64,000 bases of DNA, taken from assembly GCA_036394575.1 (NCBI GenBank), contig DASWEY010000019.1:40579-104578 (forward strand), read 5' to 3'. Origin of the DNA: Usitatibacteraceae bacterium. Lineage in GTDB: Bacteria; Pseudomonadota; Gammaproteobacteria; Burkholderiales; Usitatibacteraceae. Positions within the stretch are counted from its first letter, which is position 1, and every line of letters begins with the position of its first letter. Both the position numbers and the translations under genes were made by a program. Positions 1 to 47,717 of the stretch are shown here, in pieces. Below the pieces are notes generated by a model that had not been told where the DNA came from, did not search any database, and worked only from the letters and a program-made list of their open reading frames with translations.

Positions 1-322
1 CTGGGTTGAATTCAATTTCAACATGTGCGGCTGTCTCGACGCCCTGTTCGTTGAGCACCCTGACGACAGTGTGCCGGTAGTTCGTCGCGCTCTCACCATC
101 AATGCGCACCTGGGCATCGGCCAACAGCCAATAGACACCCTGCGAGGCCTTGCTCTCCTGCGCATTGTTACCCTCATTGATCGCAATGGGCACCACCCAA
201 GCTGGGGCGGGGCCGATCTTGTATTCCTTGCCAATGGCAGTGTCGGAAGGGGCAGCGTGCGCCGACGGGAAGGCGAGCGCGACAAAACATGCTGTAGCGG
301 CGGCAGTGGCTTTGCGCCACAT
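1..322 (-). CDS. 5' part of a secreted DUF3857/transglutaminase-associated-like protein (gene continues past the left edge)
   Basis: Not in the ORF track because the window edge truncates it. Reverse-strand translation from ATG at 320-322 gives MWRKATAAATACFVALAFPSAHA/APSDTAIGKEYKIGPAPAWVVPIAINEGNNAQESKASQGVYWLLADAQVRIDGESATNYRHTVVRVLNEQGVETAAHVEIEFNP. It has a signal peptide with an AHA cleavage motif. The family call is from memory of DUF3857 N-termini. Confidence 0.45.
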   Translation of the reverse strand, partial: MWRKATAAATACFVALAFPSAHAAPSDTAIGKEYKIGPAPAWVVPIAINEGNNAQESKASQGVYWLLADAQVRIDGESATNYRHTVVRVLNEQGVETAAHVEIEFNP

Positions 323-461
323 GCCCTGAAACCCATCAATGCGTGAACTCAATCGCGTGCTTCCTTCTTCTTGTTGGCTTTGGAATTAAAGCGGAATCAC
401 CGGATTCTAACGTGCCAATGCAACCATCGAAGGTAGGTTCGGCGCACGGGATAGCGCCAAT

Positions 462-552
462 TCGAAAAATGCAGATCGCCATTTGGCGCGCCTTCCCGGA
501 CATTTTTGCCCCGAAAGGCGCGCCAATGCTGGAGTTTGGTATTTGTATTTAG
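462..552 (+). repeat. Family-1 nested-hairpin intergenic repeat, copy 1 (T-loop form)
   Basis: tcgaaaaatgcagatCGCCATTTGGCGCGCCttcccggaCATTTTTGccccgaaaGGCGCGCCAATGCTGGAGtttggtatttgtattt. Outer inverted arms flank an inner hairpin. The same architecture occurs at 10 other sites in the window. Confidence 0.8.
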
Positions 553-583
553 GCTGAAGCTTTTATTCCTTGCGGCTCGTGCC

Positions 584-859
584 TCAGGCCGCGCCCTTCT
601 TCGCCGCAGCCTCTTTCGCCTTCTTCGCGTCCGCCTTGCCGAGTTCTTCCGCAGTCAGCTTGACCTTCTTGACCTTCTCGACTTTTTCGGCCTTGACCTT
701 TTCCTTCACCACTTTTTCCTTCTTCACCTTTTCCTTTTTCACGACCGGCCCCGCCGCCGCTACTTTCGCCGCGCGCTTGGCCTGCTTGGCTTCCACCTCG
801 AGCAACTTCTTGTTCTTCTGATTCTGACGTCTTGCCTTCAACATTTTTGCGTGACTCAA
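584..859 (-). CDS. Small Lys/Ala/Glu-rich basic protein (histone H1-like / AlgP-like low-complexity protein)
   Basis: ORF track 91 aa. TTG start at 857-859 with AGGAGG 5 nt upstream. Periodic KEKV-type repeats (VVKKEKVKKEKVVKEKVKAEKVEKVKKVK). Function cannot be assigned from sequence. Confidence 0.55.
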   Translation of the reverse strand: MSHAKMLKARRQNQKNKKLLEVEAKQAKRAAKVAAAGPVVKKEKVKKEKVVKEKVKAEKVEKVKKVKLTAEELGKADAKKAKEAAAKKGAA

Positions 860-1094
860 TTGAACCTCCTGTGATGAAACATGAAATGTCGCGTTATTTT
901 GTTCCGAATTTGTGTTCTGCGCTGAACCTCGGTTGGCAGCGCCCGGAATTAGATCACGAAAGCGTACCGGCCCGGGAATGAGGAAACATCGTATCTGGTC
1001 GTGCGAGAGCAGATTGCTATATTGCGCGACCTGGCCCCGAAGCCGCGATGCCCTCTGCCCCCAATGCGCTTGCGTCTGGCAAGGGCCGCTTGCG

Positions 1095-1595
1095 CTATTT
1101 TTTCGCCATGGCTTTTGGTCCTGCCGCCGTTTTCCGCTTTACCCCCTTGGTACGTCCCGCAACTGCCTCGCCCTCACGCAGTCCCGGCGTTACGGATCGA
1201 TCAAGCGCTGCCTTCGCCCGCTCGATCGCCGACAGCACCAGGTAGGCCGAGCGGTCCATATGTGCTCGCTTGGCCGCGCGATCGACGATGGCGAGTTCGC
1301 TTTTCCGCGCGGTGATATTCACCCGCACGGTGGCGTCATTCATGAACGACAGATCCACCGGCGCCAGGGCGAGCGCATAAGCATCGCGGTAATCGGGATC
1401 GGCCTTCCAGCGATCCAGCGCCGACGGCTCGGGCGCGATGTCTTCGCCGCGCAAATGCACCTCGACCGCTTCCTGCACATTGCGTAGCGCTTCGTCGAGC
1501 GTGGCGCCCGCCGAAAAACATCCCGGCAAATCGGGAATGATCACGCCGAATACCGATTTCCGGTCCTTGTGAATGACGACGGGGTAGTGCTTCAT
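1095..1595 (-). CDS. hicB: HicB-family antitoxin with C-terminal ribbon-helix-helix-like DNA-binding segment
   Basis: 166 aa. N-terminus YPVVIHKDRKSVFGVIIPDLPGCFSAGATLDEALRNVQEAVEVHL is HicB-like. C-terminal VNITARKSELAIVDRAAKRAHMDRSAYLV is RHH-like. 4-nt overlap with the upstream hicA. Confidence 0.85.
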   Translation of the reverse strand: MKHYPVVIHKDRKSVFGVIIPDLPGCFSAGATLDEALRNVQEAVEVHLRGEDIAPEPSALDRWKADPDYRDAYALALAPVDLSFMNDATVRVNITARKSELAIVDRAAKRAHMDRSAYLVLSAIERAKAALDRSVTPGLREGEAVAGRTKGVKRKTAAGPKAMAKK

Positions 1596-1777
1596 GATGG
1601 AATTCCTGCCTGTTTGAGAATGGCTTTGGCGGTGCCCAGCGGAAGGTCTTTTCTCGGGTGCGGCACAGTGATCTTTCCCGGTATCCGCGCGTGCTTGAAT
1701 TGCACGTGGCTGCCTTTCTGGTGAGCCTTCCGCCAGCCGGCGGCTTTAAGCAGCTTGATAATCTCGTCGCTGGACAT
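1592..1777 (-). CDS. hicA: HicA mRNA-interferase toxin
   Basis: ORF track 82 aa (1592..1840). The likely start is M22, giving MSSDEIIKLLKAAGWRKAHQKGSHVQFKHARIPGKITVPHPRKDLPLGTAKAILKQAGIPS, a canonical HicA sequence. Confidence 0.85.
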   Translation of the reverse strand: MSSDEIIKLLKAAGWRKAHQKGSHVQFKHARIPGKITVPHPRKDLPLGTAKAILKQAGIPS

Positions 1778-1835
1778 GGGCGGATTATACACACCAATAC
1801 ACACGTGGCGTGGGCCGCCGGGGTTGCACCAGATC

Positions 1836-1916
1836 GTCAAACTCTAGCACTGGTGCGGTGTTTGAGGATTTTTACTCGGGAAGGCGCGTGGATGCTTGGG
1901 TTTTGTATTTATATCG
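1836..1916 (+). repeat. Family-1 repeat, copy 2 (island subfamily, T-loop form)
   Basis: ctctagcactggtgcggtgtttgaggatttttactcgggaaggcgcgtggatgcttgggttttgtatttatatcg. Lies between hicA and the membrane-protein gene. Confidence 0.7.
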
Positions 1917-1967
1917 AATTTGGCCTATCTGATTCTAAATTGTGAAATCGGCCATTATTAAACTTTG

Positions 1968-3158
1968 TTACGATTTTCCACTTCCTCGGGTTAGCTGCTC
2001 AAACACTGCGGATGGCGCCGTGTCATCTTTTACTATTCCGTCAGAGGCCTGCCGAAAAAGCGCCTGCAAAACAAATTGAATGTCTCCATCTTTGGGGCCG
2101 ACCCCTTTGCGCATTAGGGACAAATAAGTTTGCACCATCGTCACGCGTTCAGATGCATCTGCCTCCAAATGCGTCTGACTCATAAAAAGTCTAACCAAGA
2201 TTCGAGCTACCCAGAGGTACACAGTGGCGCCCAAAATGATCCCCGAGATCCTCCAGTGATCAAGAGCGGTACCGGGCTTTAACTCGGACAGTAAATCGTG
2301 AAGGTATGAATAAAAAATAAGACTGCCGGAACAAAAATACGCGATCAAAAGAAATGCCAGGAACAACATCAATCTTTGATGCACTTTTCTTTTCTTCTCC
2401 CAGTATTTAACTGGTGCCTGAAGGGCAAGTTTTTGATCGTATGTCTTTGCAATTGCCGCAAGCTCTGTCGCCGAGCCCTTTAATTGCGTTTCGAACGCGA
2501 CGCGATTTGACGAAATCAGTTCAGCGAAAGCTTTCTCAGCGACATTTTTCGCCGATTTGATTTCCTCCGAAACCAATTCAAATCTATTCTGAAGCTCATC
2601 TTCTTCTGCGCGATATTGGCTCAGATGATTAGTCCACTCCTGCCTGAGTTCTTGTAACGCCTGTCTTTCAGCATCACTTGTTTTCTGGAGTCCCCTTTCA
2701 TACAAAATTGCGTCGGTTATTCCTGTGAATGCAACGGACTTTAAAGGTCCAACCGCCAGCCCCAAAAAATAACAAAGCGCATAGGCGGCAACTTGATCAC
2801 CAGATTTTCTTAGCGACGCAACCAATTTCGCGCGGGGAGACTTTGAGTGAAGCGCCTTCCCGCTTGCATATGTGTTTAAAAGATGCGATTGCAGTCCCGC
2901 AATACTGCTTGCATATGAAGGCTGACCGATTTGGTTTCTGCAGTCTTGCACCAGCCTCTGAGCGACGCTTAGTGGGTCAACAATAGTTGACCATGTTTGC
3001 GATAAGTTGCCATCCAAGCTGGCGAGGTTAGACATCCAGCTCCAGAAACTAATTTCTTCTGCTAACCATATGGAAACTTCATCAAGTTCCCGGAAGGTAA
3101 ATCTGCCGCCATTCCCTTCCAAATTGATCTCAAATAGGACCGCCTCTTTTTTTGCCAT
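1968..3158 (-). CDS. Coiled-coil protein with two C-terminal TM helices (C-terminal module recalled as DUF6161-like); function unknown
   Basis: 396 aa, AT-rich. Central coiled coil (LQELRQEWTNHLSQYRAEEDELQNRFELVSEEIKSAKN). TM candidates are LMLFLAFLLIAYFCSGSLIFYSY and ISGIILGATVYLWVARILVRLF. The tail is TYLSLMRKG...LQALFRQASDGIVKDD. The DUF assignment is from memory and unverified. Confidence 0.6.
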   Translation of the reverse strand: MAKKEAVLFEINLEGNGGRFTFRELDEVSIWLAEEISFWSWMSNLASLDGNLSQTWSTIVDPLSVAQRLVQDCRNQIGQPSYASSIAGLQSHLLNTYASGKALHSKSPRAKLVASLRKSGDQVAAYALCYFLGLAVGPLKSVAFTGITDAILYERGLQKTSDAERQALQELRQEWTNHLSQYRAEEDELQNRFELVSEEIKSAKNVAEKAFAELISSNRVAFETQLKGSATELAAIAKTYDQKLALQAPVKYWEKKRKVHQRLMLFLAFLLIAYFCSGSLIFYSYLHDLLSELKPGTALDHWRISGIILGATVYLWVARILVRLFMSQTHLEADASERVTMVQTYLSLMRKGVGPKDGDIQFVLQALFRQASDGIVKDDTAPSAVFEQLTRGSGKS

Positions 3159-3450
3159 GGGTTTCTCCAGTGAGAATTTGAAATTTCACGGCACCGATTA
3201 TTCGCTATTCACTCGTTTCGTAACGACAGTCCGACCATCCTCGGTCGGAAAGTAAATATGGGTCCGCAAGGTCCGACACCTGTCTTCCATCTTTATTCCA
3301 GTTAACCTGACGCTCATTCATAAAATTTATGGCGCCAAGCTCGCGTTGATTTTCGAATTACCCTGTGCCGAAAAATATACGGCGCCTGGCTCGTTTTGTT
3401 TGGAATGGCATTTCAGACTCGTTGCCCGTTTTTAAGCAAATGGTGCTGCG

Positions 3451-3540
3451 CTAAAATCTGTAGATGCCCTATTGGCGCGGTGTTTGAGACGTTTTTGCTC
3501 GGGAAGACGCACCGATGCTAGGGTTTGGCATTTATATCGG
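3451..3540 (+). repeat. Family-1 repeat, copy 3 (island subfamily, T-loop form)
   Basis: ctaaaatctgtagatgccctattggcgcggtgtttgagacgtttttgctcgggaagacgcaccgatgctagggttggcatttatatcgg-like sequence (read by eye). The left flank, arms, loop and tail all align to copies 1 and 2. Confidence 0.7.
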
Positions 3541-3608
3541 ACCCAGCCCCTTTGATTCGAGCCGACTCATTCGTGACGCCATAAAGTAAAAAAGGTAGGT
3601 CGTCGCCG

Positions 3609-4634
3609 CTACTTACACGACTTGGGGTCCGCCTGACATTGAATCAGGCGTTGTTGCTGGAGTATTAAATCGGCCTGGGCTTTTACATCAGCGGCTTTTT
3701 GAGCAGTGGTCTCACCGCTTAGCGCGGTCAGCGCAGAGCTCGCGACGTTAAGCGTCTGGCCTACGCCACCGTTGCTTGCATATTGAAGGCTCGTTAGCGC
3801 TCCTGACTCGGCGAAGCATACGGCGAAGACTTGCTTGCCAAACACCTTTGCGACCGGAATAGGAAGTGAATATGGCACGCCAAGTTGTGCCACTGGCAGC
3901 CGTCCCTCCCAAATTGTGTCGCTTCGGCATCCACCAATAGCGCCTGCGGTCACCGTGATATTTAGCAAAGCTGGTTGGCGCGCTTTAAGTATGACGCCAC
4001 CAGATTCCGCCTGGTATGCGGCCGGCGCGTTGGCTGGCTCAACTGTTCCCACTTGAGCGCAAACCCTACCAATTACGGTTGCGAGTTTGCTCGCATATAT
4101 TCCACTAGTTGGATCGGCAGGGATGTCCTGGGAGGCTGAACCAATCTTTGTTACGTCGACCGCACCCTCGTACGTCAGCGTGAGCGGCTTGCCTCCCCCG
4201 GCGCCCTTAATTATTTCGCATTCCTCCGGGTATCCTTTGGCGCCGCCATCAAACGCCAGCGCTGCAGCAGTTGACGCAATTGTCACTGCCGTCTTAAAAA
4301 TGACTTCTCCTTGCCCTGTTCCAGTCGCATTCACATTTTTCAGTCTGCCGTCATCGTAAAAATCAAATTTGACATCAGTGTCGGAAAAAGCACCCTTTAG
4401 TCCAGATAGACGAAGGGGTATGAACTGAGCCTGATCGGCCCAATGCAAAACGGCCGGCGTCACAGACGTCACGACAATTGGCATATTGTTGGCATCGCAC
4501 GCTACAGTGCGTATGACCTTAAACCTTGGCTGACTTTGTGCAAGGTAATAACCGACCGTAACATCAGGCAAATGGGCGCAGCTGCAAAGAAAAGCTAGCA
4601 ATGCCATGCCGCCAGCTTTGATGCAATTGTTCAT
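3609..4634 (-). CDS. Orphan predicted lipoprotein, no family recognised
   Basis: ORF track 365 aa (3609..4706). The likely start is M25 (MNNCIKAGGMALLAFLCSC), giving a signal peptide plus a lipobox-like LCSC. Gly/Ala/Thr/Val-rich body. C-terminal coiled tail with two Cys (RLIQCQADPKSCK). Confidence 0.55.
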   Translation of the reverse strand: MNNCIKAGGMALLAFLCSCAHLPDVTVGYYLAQSQPRFKVIRTVACDANNMPIVVTSVTPAVLHWADQAQFIPLRLSGLKGAFSDTDVKFDFYDDGRLKNVNATGTGQGEVIFKTAVTIASTAAALAFDGGAKGYPEECEIIKGAGGGKPLTLTYEGAVDVTKIGSASQDIPADPTSGIYASKLATVIGRVCAQVGTVEPANAPAAYQAESGGVILKARQPALLNITVTAGAIGGCRSDTIWEGRLPVAQLGVPYSLPIPVAKVFGKQVFAVCFAESGALTSLQYASNGGVGQTLNVASSALTALSGETTAQKAADVKAQADLILQQQRLIQCQADPKSCK

Positions 4635-4763
4635 TTTGCCTCCCGCGTATTTGCTGGTGCTGATGCAACAGAATCCTCGAGAAGCATGGTGCGCGCGGAT
4701 TCGCATAAAGGAAACTACCCGAACAGGTAGGATTTTGTGGTCCTGACCACAAGGTCTCGGCCC

Positions 4764-4812
4764 TAATTGCTCTGGGAAGGAACGCGGATGCTTGGATTGG
4801 CACTTATTTCGA
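4764..4812 (+). repeat. Family-1 repeat, copy 4 (partial: right half only, island subfamily)
   Basis: ctaattgctctgggaaggaacgcggatgcttggattggcacttatttcgag matches the loop, right arm and tail of copies 2 and 3. The left arm is missing or degenerate. Confidence 0.55.
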
Positions 4813-4849
4813 GACTGGCATCTTTAATCCCTCATTAATCCCTGCTAGA

Positions 4850-5551
4850 TTAAACAGCACCGAGCAAAGGTACTAACTCCTCAATCGAAGAGCCAAAAAC
4901 GACATTCTTGGCGACGTCTCCGCCAGTAACGTGACCAATACAGCGGCGTTTGCTATCAACAATTGGCGCCCCGCTACAGCCTTGAAAAGCATCGTGTCCG
5001 GGATGCTCGACAGGCAAACTAAACGTTAGCTTATGAGCAGATTGCTCAATGAGACGTAAGCCTGGGTAGACGATCGGCTGCCGAAAGAATGTGTTGTCGG
5101 CGTACATCTCCGGACTAATCTTGCCGGAGAATGCAAATACCTCTTTGATATCCGGTTTGACAATCTCTGACGGCATAAAGACATGATTAAGAATTGGTTC
5201 TCCAATCATTCCTCGAGGACCGCGCTCCTGATGAAATGGTTGCAAGTCGATGGCGACACTCGCTGCACTTAGATCAAGCTCCGGTCCATCGATGATTGAG
5301 AACTCATTGGGCCAGTAAAGTTCGTTCTTGCCTTCTATGTTGGGGCCGATGTCGACACACCAATCGACTCCTTTTTGCAGCGAGTGTGCTGCAGTGATCA
5401 AAATGCGCTTCTCTCCTAGATTCAAAAGCCAAGCAGATGCGATGCCAAGCACCTGATCTGTATTACGTTTAATCCTGCAAAGTGGGACACTCGTAGATCC
5501 AACCCACTTCAACCAAGATTGAATCTCCACCGGGTCTACTGGCCCTCCCAT
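4850..5551 (-). CDS. Cytoplasmic trypsin-fold (S1/Trypsin_2-like) serine protease
   Basis: 233 aa. Catalytic-triad motifs are in the canonical order: ILITAAHSL (His56), ELDLSAASV (Asp93), FQGCSGAPIV (Ser193). No signal peptide. The ATG at 5549-5551 directly abuts the stop codon (5552-5554) of the upstream ATPase. Confidence 0.8.
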   Translation of the reverse strand: MGGPVDPVEIQSWLKWVGSTSVPLCRIKRNTDQVLGIASAWLLNLGEKRILITAAHSLQKGVDWCVDIGPNIEGKNELYWPNEFSIIDGPELDLSAASVAIDLQPFHQERGPRGMIGEPILNHVFMPSEIVKPDIKEVFAFSGKISPEMYADNTFFRQPIVYPGLRLIEQSAHKLTFSLPVEHPGHDAFQGCSGAPIVDSKRRCIGHVTGGDVAKNVVFGSSIEELVPLLGAV

Positions 5552-7102
5552 TCAGTTCAATCTCGGCGCAAGCACACTTGCCGCACATCCCGGGCTGGCG
5601 ATCTCAAGGGACTCGACGTACCAGTCGAAAATTTGATCCAGCAGGAACTCGCGACTCTTTCCAGTCTTTGCGTGTAAAGCGTCGCTGAATCTATCTAGAG
5701 ATGTTTTAGCATTGCTGCGTGCAGTTGGGTCATTCGTGCTTCCCACCGATAATGGAAGCGGAACGGACAGTATGCTGTTGTTCGAAAGGGCGTCCATAAG
5801 CAAAACAAGAAAATCATTCCCGCTAATTGCCAACGCGTTTACAACTCCGACCTCTGGGGTTACGGAGAGGAACGCGACGTTTTTCTTTATTTGGTGGTAG
5901 AGCTTTTGAAGGTCGAAATTTGCCTTTGCGGCAGGTTTGATGACTGTTGGCGAAGTAGCAAATCCGGCAGCAGGCGGCGTAGTGAGTGTTGGAGGATCGA
6001 GAGCTTCAATGCAGTCCTGATCCAAGAAGGCCGTAACCCGTGTCTGCGGAGAGAATATTGAGCTGCTTTTGTCCAGGAAGCGCAAAACTGCGTCATACGG
6101 ACCAATTGGCATCACAGCAATTGTGGGGGACGCACTAGAGAGGTTAAGTGTCTTCAATGCATGCCGCAAGGATGACCGAATTAACCGTTCGGCAGCAGCA
6201 TCCTCGACTAGAAGTACAACCTCAGGCCGATGGTCGCTCGTGGGAGCCATACGTCCAAGCGCATACGTTGGATAACATCCGCGAACGCAAACTACCTTCT
6301 TGCCCTGACGCTCCAAAAAAAGTAAATGCTGCCGATCAATAGTGCCTATCAGCGTTGCAGAGTGTGTTGAAAAAACTACTGTGAGGGCTTTTTCCTTTGC
6401 GATTTTCTTAATCTCAGCAAGAAGGCGCTCTTGTGCTAACGGGTGTAAGGCAAGTTCAAGTTCGTCAATAATTGCGAGTGACTTGTCCGGCGCCTTTTCT
6501 AAAGCTCTCAACAGTTTTAGTACAGCCAGTTCTCCTAAACTGAAATTTCGCTCGGAGACATACTCATTTTCTTCGTATTCAATGACAAACGCCTGCTGCC
6601 CTTTTCCTCTTCTAACGTTTACCGTTTTTAGGTCGTCAAATTTTGACGTGCCTAGAATCAAATTGGCCTTGCTGCTAATAAAGTGGGATGCAGGGGTTAT
6701 TTTATTCGGCTTAAAATCTTCCCTTCTAGGCGTTACACGTGCGCCATCGGCAGCGATGTACAACACCTGCGAATAACCAATATTCGCCAACAATGTCGCG
6801 CCGTTTTTCTTTGGTGCGGGTTCCCATCGCACGCCACTGTAGGCGTATGTAACGCTCTGTGTTGGATCAGGCGAAACATACGAAACAGTCGCGCCGATAT
6901 AAATATCAAGTTTCGTGGACGCGTTTGACGTTTTGAAATGCCGAGGGAACGCGTCAGGAATTCCAACCCTTGCGAGGCATGCGAGAAGTGACGTCTTTCC
7001 AGCGCCATTTTCGCCGGTCAGTACATACACACCAGGACCCGGGATTTCGAAATCCAATGCGACAAGATTCTTTACATGGCGAATCTCGATTAACCAGCTC
7101 AC
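5552..7102 (-). CDS. ABC-type (AAA_15/21, OLD-like) ATPase with an uncharacterised C-terminal half containing Toprim/DUF4435-like motifs
   Basis: 516 aa, GTG start. Walker A GENGAGKTS (res 30-38), signature-like FSLGE (187-191), Walker B LAIIDELE (209-216), H-loop FSTHS (244-248). The C-terminal region has EVVLLVEDAAAE (E300) and AFLDQDC (D361/D363). Confidence 0.85.
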   Translation of the reverse strand: MSWLIEIRHVKNLVALDFEIPGPGVYVLTGENGAGKTSLLACLARVGIPDAFPRHFKTSNASTKLDIYIGATVSYVSPDPTQSVTYAYSGVRWEPAPKKNGATLLANIGYSQVLYIAADGARVTPRREDFKPNKITPASHFISSKANLILGTSKFDDLKTVNVRRGKGQQAFVIEYEENEYVSERNFSLGELAVLKLLRALEKAPDKSLAIIDELELALHPLAQERLLAEIKKIAKEKALTVVFSTHSATLIGTIDRQHLLFLERQGKKVVCVRGCYPTYALGRMAPTSDHRPEVVLLVEDAAAERLIRSSLRHALKTLNLSSASPTIAVMPIGPYDAVLRFLDKSSSIFSPQTRVTAFLDQDCIEALDPPTLTTPPAAGFATSPTVIKPAAKANFDLQKLYHQIKKNVAFLSVTPEVGVVNALAISGNDFLVLLMDALSNNSILSVPLPLSVGSTNDPTARSNAKTSLDRFSDALHAKTGKSREFLLDQIFDWYVESLEIASPGCAASVLAPRLN

Positions 7103-7168
7103 TTAGACCTGCTCTATAGTAATGGTCAAGTTGCGCAGGATTTCACCGTTGATGTGAAGCTAACCTGA

Positions 7169-8401
7169 TCATTCCCAGTTGAGCGCGCCGCCGGTTTGGT
7201 ATTCGGTCACGCGCGTCTCAAAGAAGTTCTTCTCTTTCTTCAAGTCGATCAGTTCCGACATCCACGGGAAGGGGTTGGTGGCGCCGGGGTAGAGCACGTC
7301 CAGGCCCACTTGCTGGGCGCGGCGGTTGGCGACGAAGCGCAGGTATTCCTTGAACATGGGTGCGTTGAGGCCGAGCACGCCGCGCGGCATGGTGTCTTCG
7401 GCGTAGGCGTATTCGAGCTCGACGCCCTGGCGGAACAGGCCTTCGATTTCTTTCTTGAATTCGTTGGTCCAGAGCTGCGGGTTTTCGAGCTTGATGGTGT
7501 TGACGAGGTCGATGCCGAAATTGCAGTGCATCGATTCATCGCGCAGGATGTACTGGTACTGCTCGGCGGCGCCGGTCATCTTGTTCTGGCGGCCCAGCGC
7601 CAGGATCTGCACAAAGCCGACGTAGAAGAACAGGCCTTCCATGATGCAGCTGAACACGATCAGGGACTTGAGCAGCTTCTGGTCGTTCTCGAAGGTGCCC
7701 GTCTTGAAGGTGGGGTCGGAGAGCGTGTCGATGAAGGGGATCAGGAAGCGATCCTTGTCGCGGATGCATTTGACTTCGTTGTAGGCGTTGAAGATTTCGG
7801 CTTCGTCAAGCCCTAAGCTTTCGGCGATGTACTGGTAGGCGTGGGTGTGGATGGCTTCTTCAAAGGCCTGGCGCAGCAGGTACTGGCGGCACTCGGGCGC
7901 GGTGATGTGACGATAGGTGCCGAGCACGATGTTGTTGGCGGCGAGCGAATCGGCGGTGACGAAGAAACCGAGGTTGCGCTTGATCAGCAGGCGCTCGTCG
8001 TCGGTCAGCCCCTGCGGGTTTTTCCAGGTGGCGATGTCGCGGTTCATGTTCACTTCCTGCGGCATCCAGTGGTTGGCGCAGCCGGCCAGGTATTTGTCCC
8101 AGGCCCATTTGTATTTGAACGGCACGAGCTGGTTGACGTCGGTCTTGGCGTTGATGACGCGCTTGTCTTCGGCGCGCACGCGGGTGAAGCGGGCGTCGAT
8201 ATTGGCGGTGGCGGCGCTCATGTCGGCAGCGGGGTTGGCAACGGAAGCGGCCGGCTTCTCATTGGCGAACTCACGCGCGAGGATGCCGCTGGCGGCCATG
8301 GCGTCGGCGGTGGAGGGCTGCGAACTGCGCGGCCCCGGGCCGGATGCGGCCGGGGCGGCGGGTGGGAAAGCAGCCGGGGTATCGTCCCAGGTTAATGACA
8401 T
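7169..8401 (-). CDS. nrdB: Ribonucleoside-diphosphate reductase class Ia beta subunit
   Basis: 410 aa. [25 protein letters not shown], di-iron ligand motifs [10 protein letters not shown] and LRDESMH, C-terminal tail [12 protein letters not shown]. Confidence 0.95.
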
Positions 8402-8537
8402 AGTCGTGACTCCGAAAAAATTTGATCGATCTGTTTTTGTTCGGGACGTGGCCCGGTGCTGTTGCTGTGCAAGATTTCAGTGCTGCAAATTCGGTGTTGC
8501 TGGATGCGTGGGCGCCCCGATGCGCCCTTGATGCAAC

Positions 8538-8762
8538 CTAATGCGCGAACGCCAGATGCGCCGCGCGGGTGACGTCGGCCAGGGTGCCGAAGTTGTCGTA
8601 CACCGTCGGCGCTTCCACCGCCCCGCGCATATGCTTGATGGCGAGCACGCAATCGCCGCGCCGCTTGTAGGACTGGGCGGCGGTGGCGAGCTTGTCGCCA
8701 CTGGCCGCGGCCAGGTACCAGCGCCATTCGTTGCGGATGTCCTGATAAAGATGGAAAACCAT
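8538..8762 (-). CDS. DUF1508 (YegP-like) single-domain protein
   Basis: ORF track 76 aa. The likely ATG is at M3 (a G-rich SD lies upstream). MVFHLYQDIRNEWRWYLAAASGDKLATAAQSYKRRGDCVLAIKHM fits the F..D..G.WRW.L.A.NG..IA.S..Y.....C pattern. Confidence 0.75.
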   Translation of the reverse strand: MVFHLYQDIRNEWRWYLAAASGDKLATAAQSYKRRGDCVLAIKHMRGAVEAPTVYDNFGTLADVTRAAHLAFAH

Positions 8763-8875
8763 ATACACCCCCCGTTGCTCATTTATGCTGCTTAGGCCCC
8801 AGCCCTCTTCCGTTTCAGGCCGCCTGTTTGATGCCGTGGCGGAAGAGGTAGTGGACGGGATTACTCAATAGCGAA

Positions 8876-9106
8876 TCAATGTTGACGAAAAAAACCCGGC
8901 ATCTGTAACAGTTCGGTGTTCATCAGGCTCGTGACGTTCTCCAGCACGATGGCCTGATCCGCCGCCTTCACCTGCAAAATCGTTTCGAGGCATTCTTCCT
9001 TGTCGCGATAGCCGCTGCCGGAATCCGCGATCTTCTTGCCCTCGTCACTGCTCAACTGCCAACGCCATTCGAGCCTTGCATCCTGGAAGATGTGAAATTG
9101 CATCAT
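8876..9106 (-). CDS. DUF1508 (YegP-like) single-domain protein, paralogue of 8538..8762
   Basis: 76 aa. MMQFHIFQDARLEWRWQLSSDEGKKIADSGSGYRDKEECLETILQVK. Confidence 0.75.
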   Translation of the reverse strand: MMQFHIFQDARLEWRWQLSSDEGKKIADSGSGYRDKEECLETILQVKAADQAIVLENVTSLMNTELLQMPGFFRQH

Positions 9107-9351
9107 CGGTCCTTTTCGGGTGGTGGTTGGGTGCTGCTTGCTGCCTGCTACTGTTGACGCATTTAAAACTGGTGGTGTCGTTCCGAAACGCTGCTACGTG
9201 TGCCGCACTACTACTTTTGAATTGCTCCGGACTCAACTACTTCCGCTGCGTTAAAACTTTGTTTGTCGCCCCGGCTCATTTTCGTTTCCGGGCCGGGGCG
9301 ACATAGCTGAGTTTGGCGAGTGTTATTGGCATCTCGCCGCACTACGTTTCA

Positions 9352-12342
<2,991 letters not shown>

Positions 12343-12609
12343 GGTCAGTCTCCTGTCAAATGCTTTTTGTTTTGAAAACAGTGTGTTAGTACGCAAATAC
12401 TTAACGCAAAACGTTACGCAAACTCGTTGCGCAAACCCGGTTCGTTTCCCACTCACCGGCCCTTTTGTCTGCCGTCTGCCGCCTGCTGCGTACTGCGTAC
12501 CGCACACACCACTTATGCCCAAGCCGCCACCGTGTTGCTTGTTGCGGTGAAGCTTCTGGCACGCAAGCCGCCTATGGAAGCTCCAGAGGCCGGATTGCGG
12601 AACGCGGAG

Positions 12610-12675
12610 TTGTCCACAGACTATCCACCGCGCGTCCCAACCTTTACAGTCCGGTTGGGAACAGAATTATCCACA
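12610..12675 (+). promoter_or_regulatory. DnaA-box cluster upstream of nrdA
   Basis: TTGTCCACA (12610-12618, 1 mismatch), CTATCCACC (12621-12629, 2 mismatches) and a perfect TTATCCACA (12667-12675), all in the same orientation. DnaA control of nrdAB is established in E. coli. Confidence 0.45.
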
Positions 12676-12679
12676 GCTG

Positions 12680-12726
12680 ACACAATATCTTGTGCCTGCA
12701 AGGGTCAGAACGCACTATATCGTGCG
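12680..12726. promoter_or_regulatory. Two NrdR boxes in the nrdA promoter region
   Basis: ACACAATATCTTGTG (12680-12694) and CGCACTATATCGTGCG (12711-12726) match the palindromic NrdR consensus acaCwAtATaTwGtgt. Centres are about 31-32 bp apart, as is typical. On the gene strand, box 2 overlaps a possible -10 (TATAGT) that lies 18 nt after TTGCAT. Confidence 0.65.
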
Positions 12727-12850
12727 CTTTCAAGAAAATGCAACAGTAATTTTTTTATCTGAATTTCGCCAGTAAAAACAAACACTTCAAGCATTAAAAC
12801 CAGGGTGAAAATAACCTTGCAGTTCATGTGCTTTGTGAAGGTTTGCAAGG

Positions 12851-12925
12851 CCCAGAAATGACGCGCTTTCCGGGCCAAAAAGCCTTGGAAAGGCGCATGG
12901 ATGCTGGGGTTCGCGCTTTTGGCGC
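12851..12925 (+). repeat. Family-1 repeat, copy 5 (degenerate, A-loop form)
   Basis: cccagaaatgacgcgctttccgggccaaaaagccttggaaaggcgcatggatgctggggttcgcgcttttgg. Confidence 0.55.
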
Positions 12926-13028
12926 CGGGTGATGCACGGCCAGACAGGCAGTTTTTTGGCTGGCGCCATATCCCCTGAGCAGGGGATGGGGGCGGCCCGC
13001 GCCGGCGCGCGGCAGGCTGGTTGCGCCG

Positions 13029-16000
13029 CTAATTTCGCAAAAACCGCGCTTCGAATTCCGCCGCCGGCAGGGGCTCGCTGAACAGGAAGCCCTGGCATTC
13101 GTCGCAGTTGAGCTCGGCCAGCAGGCGCTTCTGCGCCTCGGTTTCCACCCCCTCGGCGATCACGGTCAGCTTCAGGCTGTGGCCGAGCGCGACGACGGCG
13201 GTGATGATGGCGGTGGCGTCGAGGCTGGTCTCGACGTCGCGCACGAAGCTCTGGTCGATTTTCAGGGTGTCGATATGGAAACGGCGCAGATAGGCCAGCG
13301 AGGAATAGCCGGTGCCGAAATCGTCGATGGCGATCTTCACGCCCAGGTCGGAGATCTGGCGCAGCACGTCGATATTGTCGTCGGCATGCGCCATCAGCAG
13401 GCTCTCGGTGACTTCGAGCTCCAGGAAGCGTGGCTCCAGCCCGGCGCGGTACAGCGCGTTATGCACGCTGCGCGCGAGGCCGCGGTTGAGCTGGCCCACC
13501 GAGAGATTGATCGCCAGCGACAGCGGCTCGCGGCTGGGGTGGTGGCTGCGCTGCTGGGTAAAATCGCGCCAGGCGCGCGCCTGCGCGCAGCCCTGCCGCA
13601 GCACCCACTCGCCGAGCGGGCCGATCAACCCGGTTTCCTCGGCGATCGGAATGAATTGCGCCGGCGAGATCAGACCCAGCTGCGGATGACGCCAGCGCAG
13701 CAGCGCCTCGGCCCCGGTGAGGTGCCCGTCGACGAGGCTGAACTTGGGATGGTAATAAAGTTCGAATTCCTCGCTCTCGATGGCGCGCTTGAGGGTGCTT
13801 TCCATACTCAGTTTTTCGACGGCGCGCGCATTCATCTGCGGCGAGAAATACTGGTAGCTCTGGCGGCGGTGTTCCTTGGCGAAGGACATGGCCATATCGG
13901 CATTGCGGATCAGGGTGGCGGCGTCGGCGGCGTCGTTGGGGTAGACGCTGATGCCGACGGTGACCGAGCTGTCGAGGTTGCGGCCGTCGACGGCGAACGG
14001 CTTGGCCAGCGCCTGGATGATGTTCTGCGCCACCGCGCCGGCGTCTTCGGGTGCGCGCAGGGTGGCCAGCACCACTGCGAATTCATCGCCGCCGAAACGC
14101 GCCAGGGTGTCGCCCTCGGTCATCATGCCGGCGATGCGCGCGGCCACCTGTTTGAGCAGGCCGTCGCCGGTGGCATAGCCCAGGGAATCGTTGATCACCT
14201 TGAAGCGGTCGAGGTCGAACAGCAGCACGCCGATCATCTGCTGGTTGCGCTGCGCCACCAGGATCGCCTGCGAGAGGCGGTCCATCATCAGGCGGCGGTT
14301 GGGCAGCTGGGTCAGCAGGTCGCGGGTGGCCAGTTCCTCGATGCGTTCCTCGGCGGCCTTGCGCTCGGTGATGTCGAGGCCGGTGCCGCGAAAGCCGATG
14401 CGGCTGCCGTCGGTGGCGTAGAACGGCACGCCGGACACGCGCTGCCAGATGCGGCGCCCGTCGCGGGTGATGGAGACATGCTCGAGATTGCGGATCGGCT
14501 CGGCGGTATCGCCGCGCAAATCGAACCAGGCCCTGACGCGTGCGGCCTCTTCCGGCGGCATGAAATCGTAGGCGCTCCTGCCGAGCACTTCGTCGACCGG
14601 GTAGCCCAGCACTTTTTCGATGCGCGAGGAGACGTACAGGTAGCGGCGCTGCCGATCGGACTCCCACACGTATTCGCCTGCGGCCTCGACCACGTCGGCG
14701 AAGCGGCGCTCGCTTTCGCGCAACTGGAGCTCGGCGCGCTTGCGGTCGGTGACGTCCGACATTACCGCCAGCATGCAACTCTCGCCACGCAGTTCGATGA
14801 TCTCGCTCGACATCAGGGTTTCGGCGATCGAGCCGTCCTTGCGGCGCAGACGGAACTCGAACTCGCGCGCGCGCCCCTGTGTCCGCAGTTGCTCGACCAG
14901 CCGGGCGCGATCCTGCGGCGACACCCAGATGCCCAGGTCCAGCGAACGCCTGCCCAGCATTTCCTCGCGCGTGTAGCCGCACAGGCGCAACCAGGCGTCG
15001 TTGAATTCGACATAGACGCCGGTGTCCAGGTTGGAGATCACGATCGCGTCGGGGCTGGAATGGAAAATGCGCGCGAAGCGCTCGTCGGACTCGCGCTGCT
15101 GGGCCTCGGCGCGCTTGCGCGCACTGATGTCGGCCAGCACCGAGATCGCGCAGGGCTCGCCCTGCAGCTCGATCACGTCGGCGGCCAGCACCACATCGGC
15201 GAGACTACCGTCCTTGCGGCGCAGGCGGAACTCGAAGTCGCGCACCCGCCCGTGCGCCTGCATCTGTTCGACCAGGTAGGCGCGATCCTCGGCCGAGAAC
15301 CAGGTGCCGATCTCGAGTGCGCGCTTGCCGATGATTTCCTCGCGCGTATAGCCGGTGAGCGCGAACCAGGCTTCATTGGCCTCGAGATAGGTGCTTTGGT
15401 ACAGGTGCGAAATGACGATCGCATCGGGGCTCGCATGGAAGATCTTGGCGAAGCGCTCGTCGGATTCGCGCTTCTGCGCCTCGGCGCGTTTGCGCGCGGT
15501 CAGGTCGAAGGCGGTGGCGATCACGCAGGGCTGCCCGCCGAACTCGATGACCTGCGCCGAATACAGCACTTCCACCGCCTGCCCGTCGGCGGCGGTCAGA
15601 ACCACCTCGGTCGGATCGATGCGCCCGTTTTCATGCATTTGCGCAATCACCATCTGGCGCTGGGCCTTGTTCCGCCAGACACCGAGTTCCGGGGTGGTGC
15701 GACCGATCACCTGCTCGCGGGTGAAATGCATCATGTCGAGCCCGGCCTGGTTGACCTCGAACACACGGCCGTCGGCCAAACTACTGATGGTGGCCGGGAT
15801 CGGACTGTTGGCGAACACCATGGCAAACAGTTTTTGCGAGCGCGCCAGTTCGACCATGCCCTGTCGCTGTTCGGCGCGGCTGCTGACCAGGAGCAAGGCG
15901 GCCAGCGCCACCGCATAGCCGAAGCCCTGCTGCTGCAGCACGGCCGCGGTGACGGCGAGATTGGAGAACGGGCCGAAGTCGAAGCGCGTGCCGATGATGA

Positions 16001-45078: not shown

Positions 45079-45582
45079 CTATTCAATCACGCGAAGTGAA
45101 TATATCGTTTCTTCCATTGGCTTCTTCGGGGACGCTGGGTCAAATACGGCGCGACGTCTAACGGCTACTTTATCGAAGTAAATTTCCCCCTCAAACGATT
45201 CTGAACCGTCACCGCCATAAATATGTAGTACACCTTGGCCCGCTGAGAGTATGAGTTCGCACTTGCGAACGTCTACTAAGTCAATGAAGGCAGATGAAGG
45301 TACAACAAGTTTTCTATTGTTGACTACGATTTCCAAGTTTTCAATGACTGAGAAAGTATCTGTGAACTGACCTTCAATAAATCGCGGCCCCAGAAAATCC
45401 TTAGCGTTTACTACTTTTGTTTTTGCAACAACCGTTACTGCCATCCCGTACGCACGAAGAGAAAACTTCGTGTTTGCGCTTGAGGTTAGGTCTTGAGTTT
45501 CAATGTAGTCACCCCAAACAACGGGGCTTAGCAGGATCACGCATACGGCCACAAGTGAGCAATACCAATTTATTTTGGACAC
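45079..45582 (-). CDS. Exported hypothetical protein, candidate immunity protein 2 (paralogue of 45603..46091)
   Basis: 167 aa, AT-rich. Signal peptide MSKINWYCSLVAVCVILLSPVVWG. The C-terminal block VPSSAFIDLVD...HIYGGDGSESFEGEIYF...RRRAVF...KPMEETIYS aligns with the upstream paralogue. Confidence 0.6.
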   Translation of the reverse strand: MSKINWYCSLVAVCVILLSPVVWGDYIETQDLTSSANTKFSLRAYGMAVTVVAKTKVVNAKDFLGPRFIEGQFTDTFSVIENLEIVVNNRKLVVPSSAFIDLVDVRKCELILSAGQGVLHIYGGDGSESFEGEIYFDKVAVRRRAVFDPASPKKPMEETIYSLRVIE

Positions 45583-45602
45583 GATATTAATTTAGGCACT
45601 TA

Positions 45603-46091
45603 TTACATGTTGAAAGAATATCGCGTTTCTTCCCAAGCCTTGTCTGGAAACGATCCATTTACAACACGTCTTTTTTTGAGGTAGCGCCCCTGTTGAAATA
45701 CTAGTTCGGCAGTATAAGCATCTGCGCCATCGCCACCATTCACCAAGAGGACGACATCATTCCCAGATTGGTCCAAAGAGACGTTCATTGGGTTTGCAAG
45801 ATCTGCGTACGCTGAGAACGGAATGTATATCTTTTGCTTCCCGATTCTAATGTCTAGCTTGACAATTGCTGAAGCGGGATGCCCTTGTTCAGCACCCCAC
45901 AGGCTTTGCGAGCCATAAATAGAAAAATTTGGTTTGCTCGCAAGAACGACAATAGAGAATTTTTTGCCACCTTTAAGCTCTATTGCCAATTCGGCACGCC
46001 CATCTTTTAGGGACACCGAGTTGGCACCAAACACCATGCCTGCCTGAAGTAGAAAGACAATAAATGCCCAACAGTAGATTCGTATCATCAT
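45603..46091 (-). CDS. Exported hypothetical protein, candidate immunity protein 1
   Basis: 162 aa. Signal peptide [33 protein letters not shown]...[17 protein letters not shown]...KRRVVN...KAWEETRYS. The ATG overlaps the toxin stop (ATGATGA). Confidence 0.6.
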
Positions 46092-46672
46092 TCGAATACT
46101 TTCAATATTTTGTCTGAACTGCGGTTGATCCTTTTTCGGACATTAAGCGGAAGCACAATACAGCCTGTAGAGGCTGTTTCACACTTACACGAATTATCAC
46201 CGTGAATCTGGAACGAACTGCGACCAAAAGTATTGGTGTCAGGTAATGGCGTCAAGTCCATAATATTTTTACCAGTATTAGGGCTATCTCTCATCGAACC
46301 AATCCGATATTCTCCTTCGGTTAAAGGCCCCGCCGGATTTTGAGGATTACGCGGTTCAGATGCGGACTGCAGTTGCCAAACTGGATTGTTAAGCCCATCT
46401 GCCCTCCCTGAATATCCTTTGTCAGTAATAAAGTCAGCCGCTCCTCCTTCTGGAGGGAAGTACCACAGCGAACCTGAAGACAAGTAGTACTCCCAGTGCA
46501 ATCCGAAGGGGTCTCTTAAGTTCAATGGGCTGCCCTTCACATATGCATATGTATTGACGCCCCCTTTTAACCCAATCGGGTCACTCTGCACATATCGCGC
46601 TGCAGCACTACTGCCATAACCGATTAGCACCAGCATAAGCAAGATCGCTTTGATCAATCTCAGTATTGTCAT
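46088..46672 (-). CDS. Signal peptide + Rhs-core C-terminal tip motif + DUF2778/Tlde1-like (L,D-transpeptidase-fold) toxin domain
   Basis: ORF track 205 aa (to 46705). The better start is M12 (AGGGGA SD), giving [58 protein letters not shown] (Rhs PxxxxDPxGL end motif). This is followed by ...[11 protein letters not shown]...[27 protein letters not shown] (H...GC catalytic pattern of the YkuD/DUF2778 fold). Confidence 0.7.
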
Positions 46673-46685
46673 TCCGCTTCCCCTT

Positions 46686-47717
46686 TCATTGTACTGATTT
46701 AGCATTGTTCACTCGTTGTAAATAATCCCTGTTTGCTGCCTCATCCGGTTCTCGCCAACCAAGCGCCTCAGCCTTCCCTCGCCATTGCCGCATGCCCTGA
46801 TCAAGTTGCATGAAATACGGGCGCTGTTCCTCCGGAATGTCTCTCGGCATCGGGTACTTGTTCACAAAATGCCGCTGCCGTAGGCGGTAGCAGGCCGATG
46901 CGGTATGCAGCATGGCCGGTACATACTTCGGGTAGTGCGCTAACACCAGACTGGCCAAAGCAATGCGGTACTCTTCCTGGCCTTGCTGTCCATACCACTC
47001 CAGCAAGGTGCCTGCCATCACGACAACGGTCTCTTTCTTGGTCAAGGGTTGCATGTAGATGCCATTGGCCAAGGCTTCCGCGGTCATCGGGTTTTGCTGC
47101 TGCACCCAGACGTCCCGCGTGAAGCCGGCGCCGCTGGTAGCTTCCAAATTGAAATAGGTACCCAACTCATCCCGGTATTTGACGAAGATATGCTCCGGCG
47201 CGGTCGATGCGGTTACGTCGATGCCGAGCTTCTGTCCAAGGACGATGAAGAGCAAGGGCATCGACACGCAATTGCCCTTCCGTGTGGCAAGATAGTTAGG
47301 CAACAGCTTGTTGCGAATGTTTTGGCCGAAGGGGTCGTCGAGATCGTAATGGAATGGTCGGTTGGCGTTCCAGGGACCTGCTTGATAAATATACGAACGC
47401 AGCGCATCGAGTTTCTGCCGGCTAGTAGCGCGGGCCGGCAATTGGGATTTGACCTTTGCCGCTATCGCATCGAGTTGCTTGAGATTTTTGGCGATGTCGA
47501 TGCCCGGATCGATCATGTGATCGATGGCCAGCTTTGCTTTCGCGAGATCGATCTGATCGTCCGGCGATTCCAGAATGGCGCGGATCGTTTGAAGATGCGC
47601 GTCCGGCACATGTGTGATGCTCTCCGCATATGCAGCCTGGATAGCTGCCGATAGCGGAAGAAACATGCCCAACAAAAACGATAGTACTAATGAAGTAGGC
47701 GCTGGTAGCGGGCGCAT
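46686..47717 (-). CDS. Exported transglutaminase-like / TPR protein (SirB1-like family)
   Basis: 343 aa. Signal peptide ...[12 protein letters not shown]. Transglutaminase-core-like [19 protein letters not shown] and APEHIFVKY...FNLEAT. Helical TPR-like C-terminus. Confidence 0.65.

Follow-up and report, generated by a model that had tools for sequence, protein, structure and literature searches.

Can two genes that abut without a spacer be taken for one defense system? The question is raised by a locus in a stretch of 64,000 nucleotides from a Usitatibacteraceae bacterium (GenBank assembly GCA_036394575.1, contig DASWEY010000019.1, positions 40,579 to 104,578), termed the window, in which an open reading frame (ORF) for a 516-amino acid ABC-type ATPase is followed immediately by an ORF for a 233-amino acid trypsin-fold protease. 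An initial annotation made from the DNA letters proposed that the two genes form a single anti-phage system with the ATPase as sensor and the protease as effector. The comparisons described below favor another arrangement, at a probability of about 0.65, in which the hotspot downstream of nrdB holds two independent cassettes, a putative single-gene OLD-like ATPase-nuclease and a predicted stand-alone protease, that are not a conserved pair. The ORFs, their coordinates and strand and the TGA/ATG abutment were given correctly by the initial annotation, and the elements on which the argument turns are listed here by window position.

5552 to 7102, minus strand: ATPase ORF, 516 amino acids, GTG start, stop codon TGA at 5552-5554.
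6248 to 7102, minus strand: ABC ATPase domain, residues 1 to about 285, with K36, S188-L-G-E191, D213/E214 and H247.
5843 to 6226, minus strand: Toprim-like alpha/beta core, residues about 293-420, with VE300D301xxA, LD361xD363 and TPE417.
5555 to 5842, minus strand: C-terminal helical region of the ATPase, residues about 421-516, in which R462 and K466 are invariant.
5549 to 5554, minus strand: TGA-ATG abutment of both ORFs with a spacer of 0 nucleotides, read from the sequence.
4850 to 5551, minus strand: protease ORF, 233 amino acids, ATG start at 5549-5551.
7169 to 8401, minus strand: nrdB, the ribonucleotide reductase small subunit, conserved anchor of the hotspot, identified from the ORF and from relatives.

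The junction of the two coding sequences reads ...AAC TGA ATG GGA..., and the GTG start of the ATPase is backed by the matching N termini of 47 homologues. Conservation of the pair was assessed at 57 protease loci from GTDB representative genomes (49 with at least 2.7 kilobases (kb) upstream), at 80 metagenome ATPase loci (49 with at least 900 nucleotides downstream) and on viral or prophage contigs from IMG/VR, which provided 3 protease loci (L160-L162) and 10 ATPase loci (L163-L172). No match to the hidden Markov model (HMM) of the ATPase family lies near the protease in any of the 57 genome loci or the 3 viral loci, and a protease homologue is found near the ATPase in 0 of 80 metagenome loci and 0 of 10 viral loci. 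A scan of the protease neighbors with a relaxed HMM and a Walker A pattern returns only sporadic, unrelated P-loop NTPases, and clustering of all ORFs within 3 kb of either family gives nothing recurrent beyond duplicate contigs. The ATPase is predicted to be autonomous with no obligate partner, because no neighbor family is present in more than 4 of the 80 ATPase loci; the protease likewise has no conserved neighbor in 46 genome loci. As had been claimed, no named two-gene system in PADLOC, Pfam or NCBIfam corresponds to the pair, but the proposal that it constitutes one system does not survive this comparison, because synteny fails in other genomes. Both families are seen on predicted viral or prophage contigs, separately, an observation that fits mobile cargo resembling the P2 old locus.

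The arrangement of genes in the closest relatives is the most telling evidence on the pairing. Eleven of 14 related contigs (L006-L011, L149-L151, L155 and L159) begin at the 5' end with an nrdB gene 82-97% identical to that of the window (annotated as PF00268 in L010), and they therefore represent the same chromosomal site. In L007, L008, L009 and L155 nrdB (94-97% identical) is followed after 8 nucleotides by the protease (63-66% identical to that of the window) with no ATPase present, and the protease of L007 is in turn followed by a BglII-type restriction-modification system and HigBA. In L010, L011, L149, L150, L151 and L159 nrdB is followed by the ATPase (49-58% identical) and then by unrelated genes with no protease, these being an orphan gene of 375 amino acids, a gene of 433 amino acids with a reverse transcriptase (RT), a methyltransferase with DUF87, or an ORF on the opposite strand; the RT lies in L149, two genes downstream of the ATPase. 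Loci having one of the two genes alone keep all of its catalytic residues. Both genes are found at the site only in the window and in L006, where the order is the same and the spacer between ATPase and protease is 236 nucleotides; the direct abutment is a local trait of the window genome. Between the window and L006 the proteases are 81% identical and the ATPases 50%, a discordance because of which the two genes are regarded as evolving as separate modules. With the AbiZ-like gene and HicAB described below in the window, and the BglII-type system with HigBA, the RT, and the methyltransferase with DUF87 in the relatives, the site immediately downstream of nrdB, recorded for the window at 7103-7168, is a hotspot of cassette swapping specific to this lineage and holds mostly defense-type genes.

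Two further observations were made at this site. The ATPase homologue beside nrdB in L159 (456-1909) seems disrupted, with residues 1-364 and 439-513 in different frames, which suggests either decay of the cassette or an assembly error. The downstream genes of 365-375 amino acids in the window, L006, L010 and L149 were considered as a shared third component and rejected, being mutually unrelated.

The same configurations bear on a looser association, in which the protease would be an optional accessory of the ATPase-nuclease and serve either as an extra effector or as an activator that processes the nuclease. The abutment of the stop and start codons implies co-transcription and likely translational coupling, L006 repeats the order of ATPase then protease, a terminator-like hairpin lies behind the protease with none behind the ATPase, and trypsin-like proteases are recruited in modular fashion by Hachiman, AVAST, Lamassu and DRT, where they activate latent effectors (PMC12799240, PMC12642450). 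An accessory role would thus be similar to that of the protease-effector modules acquired again and again by unrelated defense systems. In the protease-effector modules described so far, however, the protease is fused to a sensor and has evolved together with a particular latent effector encoded next to it, which may be an MBL, Pepco, EACC1 or alpha/beta-hydrolase protein (PMC12799240, PMC12642450), whereas the protease of the window is a free protein of 233 amino acids with no conserved neighbor, and MBL, Pepco and EACC1 have no match among the ORFs of the island. What the locus has in common with such modules and with ATPase-plus-protease systems is the placement of a trypsin-fold serine protease beside an NTPase in a defense island. 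Among the loci surveyed the two genes never co-occur outside one small clade, within that clade each is found intact without the other, and their identities are discordant, so that an optional partnership of this kind is considered unlikely.

The sequence and predicted structure of the ATPase indicate why it may need no partner. The complete set of ABC motifs noted in the initial annotation is present, with GENGAGKTS (K36), FSLGE (187-191), LAIIDELE (D213/E214) and FSTHS (H247) invariant across 48 homologues and the motif residues also kept in an alignment with ATPase-Toprim proteins from Escherichia coli plasmids. Pfam, PADLOC and Foldseek agree with its description as OLD-like. The Pfam matches are AAA_21 (expectation value (E) 1.9e-19) and AAA_15 (7.6e-11) together with SMC_N and ABC_tran, and the best PADLOC match is ATPase-Toprim_I-B (4.1e-35, residues 148-364), with the PADLOC HEC-04 model also matching (4.8e-22, 76 bits) over residues 15-363, equivalent to profile positions 42-377 of 494. 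The PHROGs family phrog_3940 covers residues 133-364, and all three of these alignments (ATPase-Toprim_I-B, HEC-04 and phrog_3940) end at the DxD motif at residue 363/364. The C-terminal half was originally called uncharacterized, a description that no longer holds, as the residues invariant beyond the H-loop in the 48 homologues are E300-D301 (VEDxxA), D361xD363 (LDxD), E417 (TPEvG), R462 and K466, of which E300-D301, D361xD363 and E417 make up a Toprim-like signature. Aravind and colleagues are said to have described the Toprim signature in 1998 as a conserved glutamate and a DxD motif. The AlphaFold2 model of the ATPase (predicted local distance difference test score (pLDDT) 89) has an alternating beta-alpha pattern over residues 295-411. 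Foldseek searches with the full model give the retron Eco8 OLD effector (9lpa_B, E 2.4e-12) and TsOLD (6p74, 3.5e-12), followed by PtuA and GajA (1e-10 for GajA); the OLD alignments are long (608-720 columns) but have template modeling (TM) scores of only 0.33-0.37 owing to domain orientation. TsOLD is also a sequence match in the ATPase domain, and some members of the ATPase family are labeled by NCBI as ATP-dependent nuclease/endonuclease.

By tblastn, proteins encoded on E. coli plasmids are 21-23% identical to the ATPase over residues 5-363, and every catalytic column is common to both in the joint alignment. Two of these relatives were scanned and both match ATPase-Toprim_I-B (1e-39 to 1e-41), one also matching HEC-04 (3e-25). 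An exhaustive search of 1.84 billion representatives with a profile of the C-terminal domain finds 249 clusters, all from the same family of about 500 amino acids; most members have that length, the shorter ones look like fragments, and the domain lies at the C-terminal end. In the plasmid searches distant relatives of the ATPase were recovered and essentially none of the protease. The 516-amino acid protein is filed here with the ABC-ATPase-Toprim (OLD-like) proteins, as a distant and distinct member that has a predicted effector domain of its own.

The closest described relatives of the ATPase are HEC-04/IbfA and the effector of type I-B retrons. A single gene is enough for defense by HEC-04, and this defense is lost in the K62A and E319A/D375A/D377A mutants (Payne et al. 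2024, 10.1101/2024.01.29.577857); IbfA of IncI plasmids is a homologue of HEC-04 and a single-gene abortive-infection factor (PMC12111858). Residues K36 and D363 of the window ATPase map onto HEC-04 K62 and D377 by profile position, and, judged by spacing, E300 and D361 are the counterparts of E319 and D375. The proteins are alike in having about 500-520 amino acids, in beginning with an ABC ATPase and in lacking an obligate partner, and the Toprim-type domain at the C terminus of HEC-04 and IbfA has a putative counterpart in the window ATPase. They differ in that residues from about 365 to 516 of the window ATPase, after the DxD motif, are specific to the 249-cluster family, and in that its gene is chromosomal beside nrdB and is neither within a Hma system nor on an IncI plasmid. 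From the alignments, the window ATPase is a distant relative of HEC-04 and not an orthologue, because the score is modest. This homology to single-gene systems, with a predicted Toprim-type domain in the ATPase itself, weakens the proposed logic of an ATPase sensor that relays to a protease effector. The statement that no nuclease gene lies adjacent stands for a separate gene and fails in another sense, since the predicted nuclease forms one polypeptide with the ATPase.

The strength of the match to the type I-B retron effector (class 3 OLD, Retron-Eco8), which is best both by HMM and by structure, raises the possibility that the ATPase is the effector of a degenerate retron whose RT and noncoding RNA lie nearby or have been lost, and the RT two genes downstream in L149 is in keeping with this. 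The window ATPase differs from that effector in having no adjacent RT or noncoding RNA: Pfam finds no RT-like ORF or RVT domain among all ORFs of the island, and Rfam gives no RNA match in positions 1-14000 at E of 1 or below. The neighbors of the 80 homologues include no recurrent RT family, and E. coli plasmid proteins without retrons match the same model better than the window ATPase does, which makes a retron origin very improbable. Gabija (class 2 OLD) differs by its UvrD-like GajB, as no helicase domain is present in the island ORFs, and GajA models match the ATPase at about 1e-10 to 1e-11 in the Walker B/H-loop region only. In PARIS the components AriA and AriB are separate genes, whereas the ATPase and Toprim-like domains of the window are in one ORF, and the AriA model matches at 2.5e-20 over residues 136-252 only.

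The second gene encodes a protein with a confidently predicted trypsin fold, which from homologue alignments and the modeled fold is a putative stand-alone PA-clan-like serine protease belonging to an undescribed family. The catalytic triad proposed for it, His56/Asp93/Ser193, is borne out by conservation, as all 44 homologues keep D93 and S193 and nearly all keep H56, and the family motif reads LPVEHPGH...F.GCSGAPIV with the triad in the order His-Asp-Ser and a G-x-S-G-x-P signature. When the PDB was searched by sequence for the protease, the only results were a spurious match to a CBS domain and trypsin at E 0.11, because of which a fold search was needed. The AlphaFold2 model (pLDDT 91.3) matches FAM111A, Deg1, HtrA1, DegS, uPA and V8 in the PDB at E of about 1e-7 and TM scores of 0.5-0.6, and viral trypsin-like or 3C-like proteases in BFVD. 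The N terminus has no hydrophobic signal-like segment, in line with the earlier claim that a signal peptide is lacking, and the protease is probably cytoplasmic. No matches are found in Pfam, NCBIfam or PHROGs, and the PADLOC matches all have E above 0.02.

The protease has the double beta-barrel fold, the His-Asp-Ser order and the G-x-S-G-x-P signature in common with PA-clan members such as HtrA/DegS, V8/Esp and FAM111A. It is only 10-16% identical to these, has neither a PDZ or regulatory domain nor a signal peptide, and differs further by the LPVEHPGH motif, which is specific to its family, and by a helix at the N terminus. Unlike the protease of protease-type Lamassu or the RT-protease of type XI retrons, it has no significant model match, the LmuA and RT-Protease_XI models giving E of 0.028-0.087 and no reportable stretch. 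Iet, another system that pairs an ATPase with a protease, uses a subtilase (S8) and not a trypsin-fold protease.

In 5.8 billion proteins the protease family comprises 267 clusters, one of which carries Pfam Trypsin_2. Nearly all of the best 120 of these 267 relatives are single-domain hypothetical proteins of 230-250 amino acids, and the family is distributed mainly in Beta- and Gammaproteobacteria. Its neighbors include, on the side of defense and toxin-antitoxin genes, ThsB, HamA, PD-T7-1, PsyrT, HEPN, ParE and caspase-FGE, and, on the side of housekeeping genes, polA, BCCT, miaA, ClpB and peptidase M17. The protease family, for which there is no Pfam model, is the sole new element of the locus and travels independently among variable regions.

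Three loci have unusual surroundings. Two independent protease loci, L001 (5621-7429) and L014, adjoin a fusion of caspase (Peptidase_C14), FGE and sulfatase domains, and in L001 a small ORF of 96 amino acids is also present; the caspase-FGE-sulfatase architecture has been described in conflict or protease-effector systems. In L036 (5899-9733) a protease homologue split into two ORFs is followed by an ORF of 162 amino acids and then by a protein of 722 amino acids with an ABC/SMC-like Walker A motif, GLNGTGKS, which the ATPase-family HMM does not detect even at E of 10 or below. Among the further loci, L036 alone places an ABC-like NTPase of any sort close to the protease.

The mixed neighborhood bears on whether the protease is a defense protein at all. 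It could instead have a niche housekeeping or regulatory role, perhaps in connection with genes for DNA precursors or replication, as it lies 8 nucleotides after nrdB in the closest relatives and about 20 nucleotides after polA in L005, as many neighbors of its homologues are the housekeeping genes named above, and as it has no PHROGs match and no significant PADLOC match. The family is, however, absent from most genomes, its roughly 270 clusters being patchily scattered through the 5.8 billion proteins, and the GC content of the gene is low relative to the host. The context varies and frequently includes toxin-antitoxin or defense genes (ParE, ThsB, HamA, PD-T7-1, HEPN and caspase-FGE), and homologues lie on predicted viral contigs. 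Because of this patchiness, low GC, variable context and viral occurrence, the protease looks like an accessory or mobile gene and not a housekeeping one, and a role outside defense seems decidedly improbable. A more specific proposal is that the family, whose members have roughly 245 amino acids, is an autonomous or plug-in component of defense, which would act alone as an abortive-infection effector or dock onto varied sensors, in this case the OLD-like nuclease through translational coupling; this is held to be doubtful.

Several points weigh against two independent cassettes, a single-gene ATPase-nuclease and a stand-alone protease, as the account of the locus. No Pfam Toprim model is matched by any ATPase-family member tested (all of Pfam-A; 17 C-terminal domains; 10 distant members), a PDB sequence search with the profile of the C-terminal domain found nothing, and hhalign against the E. 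coli class 1 OLD protein YbjD aligns the P-loop region only. The window ATPase resembles class 1 OLD proteins (P2 Old, TsOLD, Vibrio cholerae OLD and E. coli YbjD) in that one gene encodes an ABC ATPase together with a Toprim domain, which in its case is putative; the missing Toprim match and the short YbjD alignment set it apart from them, as does its place in a defense hotspot, class 1 OLDs having been described as not near other defense genes. The Toprim-like assignment rests on motif invariance, the coverage of PADLOC and PHROGs HMMs, and a full-length structural match of low TM score. As to the pairing, the genes abut with no spacer, the only two loci that have both agree in gene order, and a local functional link between ATPase and protease is possible. 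The comparison contigs are mostly short metagenome fragments of close relatives, and as a result the independent hotspot configurations are few (about 8).

The remaining features of the island are variable cargo of the hotspot and a toxin-antitoxin pair, as follows.

4715 to 4730, minus strand: terminator-like hairpin with a T-run between the protease stop codon and the next ORF (pattern scan, weak).
3609 to 4706, minus strand: orphan ORF of 365 amino acids, variable hotspot cargo, no library match.
1968 to 3158, minus strand: DUF6161/AbiZ-like membrane protein of 396 amino acids, variable hotspot cargo (Pfam, PADLOC).
1095 to 1840, minus strand: toxin-antitoxin pair, HicA at 1592-1840 and HicB at 1095-1595 (Pfam).

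The island between nrdB and the HicAB pair, from about 1968 to 7100, has a GC content of 47-52% compared with 57-67% in the flanks, and no tRNA was found at its borders. The HicAB assignment is firm in Pfam (HicA_toxin 4.2e-22, HicB_lk_antitox 6.5e-33). The AT-rich island, the adjacent HicAB pair and the defense-type context of the initial annotation are thus upheld, and its description of the neighboring genes as orphans is not, as the protein of 1968-3158 matches Pfam DUF6161 (7.8e-23) and PADLOC AbiZ (1.8e-15); this AbiZ-like gene is a candidate for a further gene of the abortive-infection type within the same island. The ORF at 3609-4706 has no match in Pfam, PADLOC, NCBIfam or PHROGs. Its internal Met25 begins MNNCIKAGGMALLAFLCSC, and because the sequence from this residue resembles a lipoprotein signal, the product is probably exported as a lipoprotein that starts at Met25. 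A promoter scan upstream of the ATPase found nothing. Terminator-like patterns in the region number 11 compared with 6.5 +/- 2.9 in shuffled sequences and are not enriched, and because of this the hairpin at 4715-4730 is only suggestive of a terminator.

Two paralogous DUF1508 (YegP-like) ORFs of 76 amino acids, at 8538-8768 and 8876-9106 on the minus strand, lie between nrdB and nrdA, and L010 has a small ORF likewise placed. Elsewhere in the window a second stretch of low GC (44-52%), at 45079-47717 on the minus strand, contains four co-directional ORFs, among them a protein with a Tlde1 domain (46088-46705, with E 2.5e-5 falling short of the Pfam cutoff) and a transglutaminase-like protein (46686-47717, 8e-13); the stretch may be a toxin/effector cassette.

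With two independent cassettes as the preferred account, a mechanism can be outlined for each. The ATPase-Toprim protein would act alone by analogy with HEC-04, IbfA and OLD. Dimers of the ABC ATPase may sense an infection cue, and ATP binding or hydrolysis would then license a two-metal Toprim site formed by E300, D361 and D363 to nick or cut DNA, a cleavage that could abort phage replication or interfere with the phage directly. The 233-amino acid protein would function in the cytoplasm as a compact serine protease that lacks any regulatory domain. Judging from the TGAATG junction, both genes are probably co-transcribed and translationally coupled in this genome, which would reflect local packing of genes and not an obligate partnership.

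The analysis removes a false lead, in that the ATPase and protease do not constitute a new, conserved defense system, and it assigns the ATPase to a kind that has been validated by experiment, the single-gene ABC-ATPase-Toprim defenses represented by HEC-04, IbfA and OLD. Should the protease prove to be a defense effector or add-on, the theme of protease-gated immunity would extend to a free-standing protease, and if it does plug into the neighboring protein, the locus would provide the first case of cooperation between an OLD-type nuclease and a protease. The nrdB-anchored hotspot is now documented, and such hotspots are a practical route to new defense genes.

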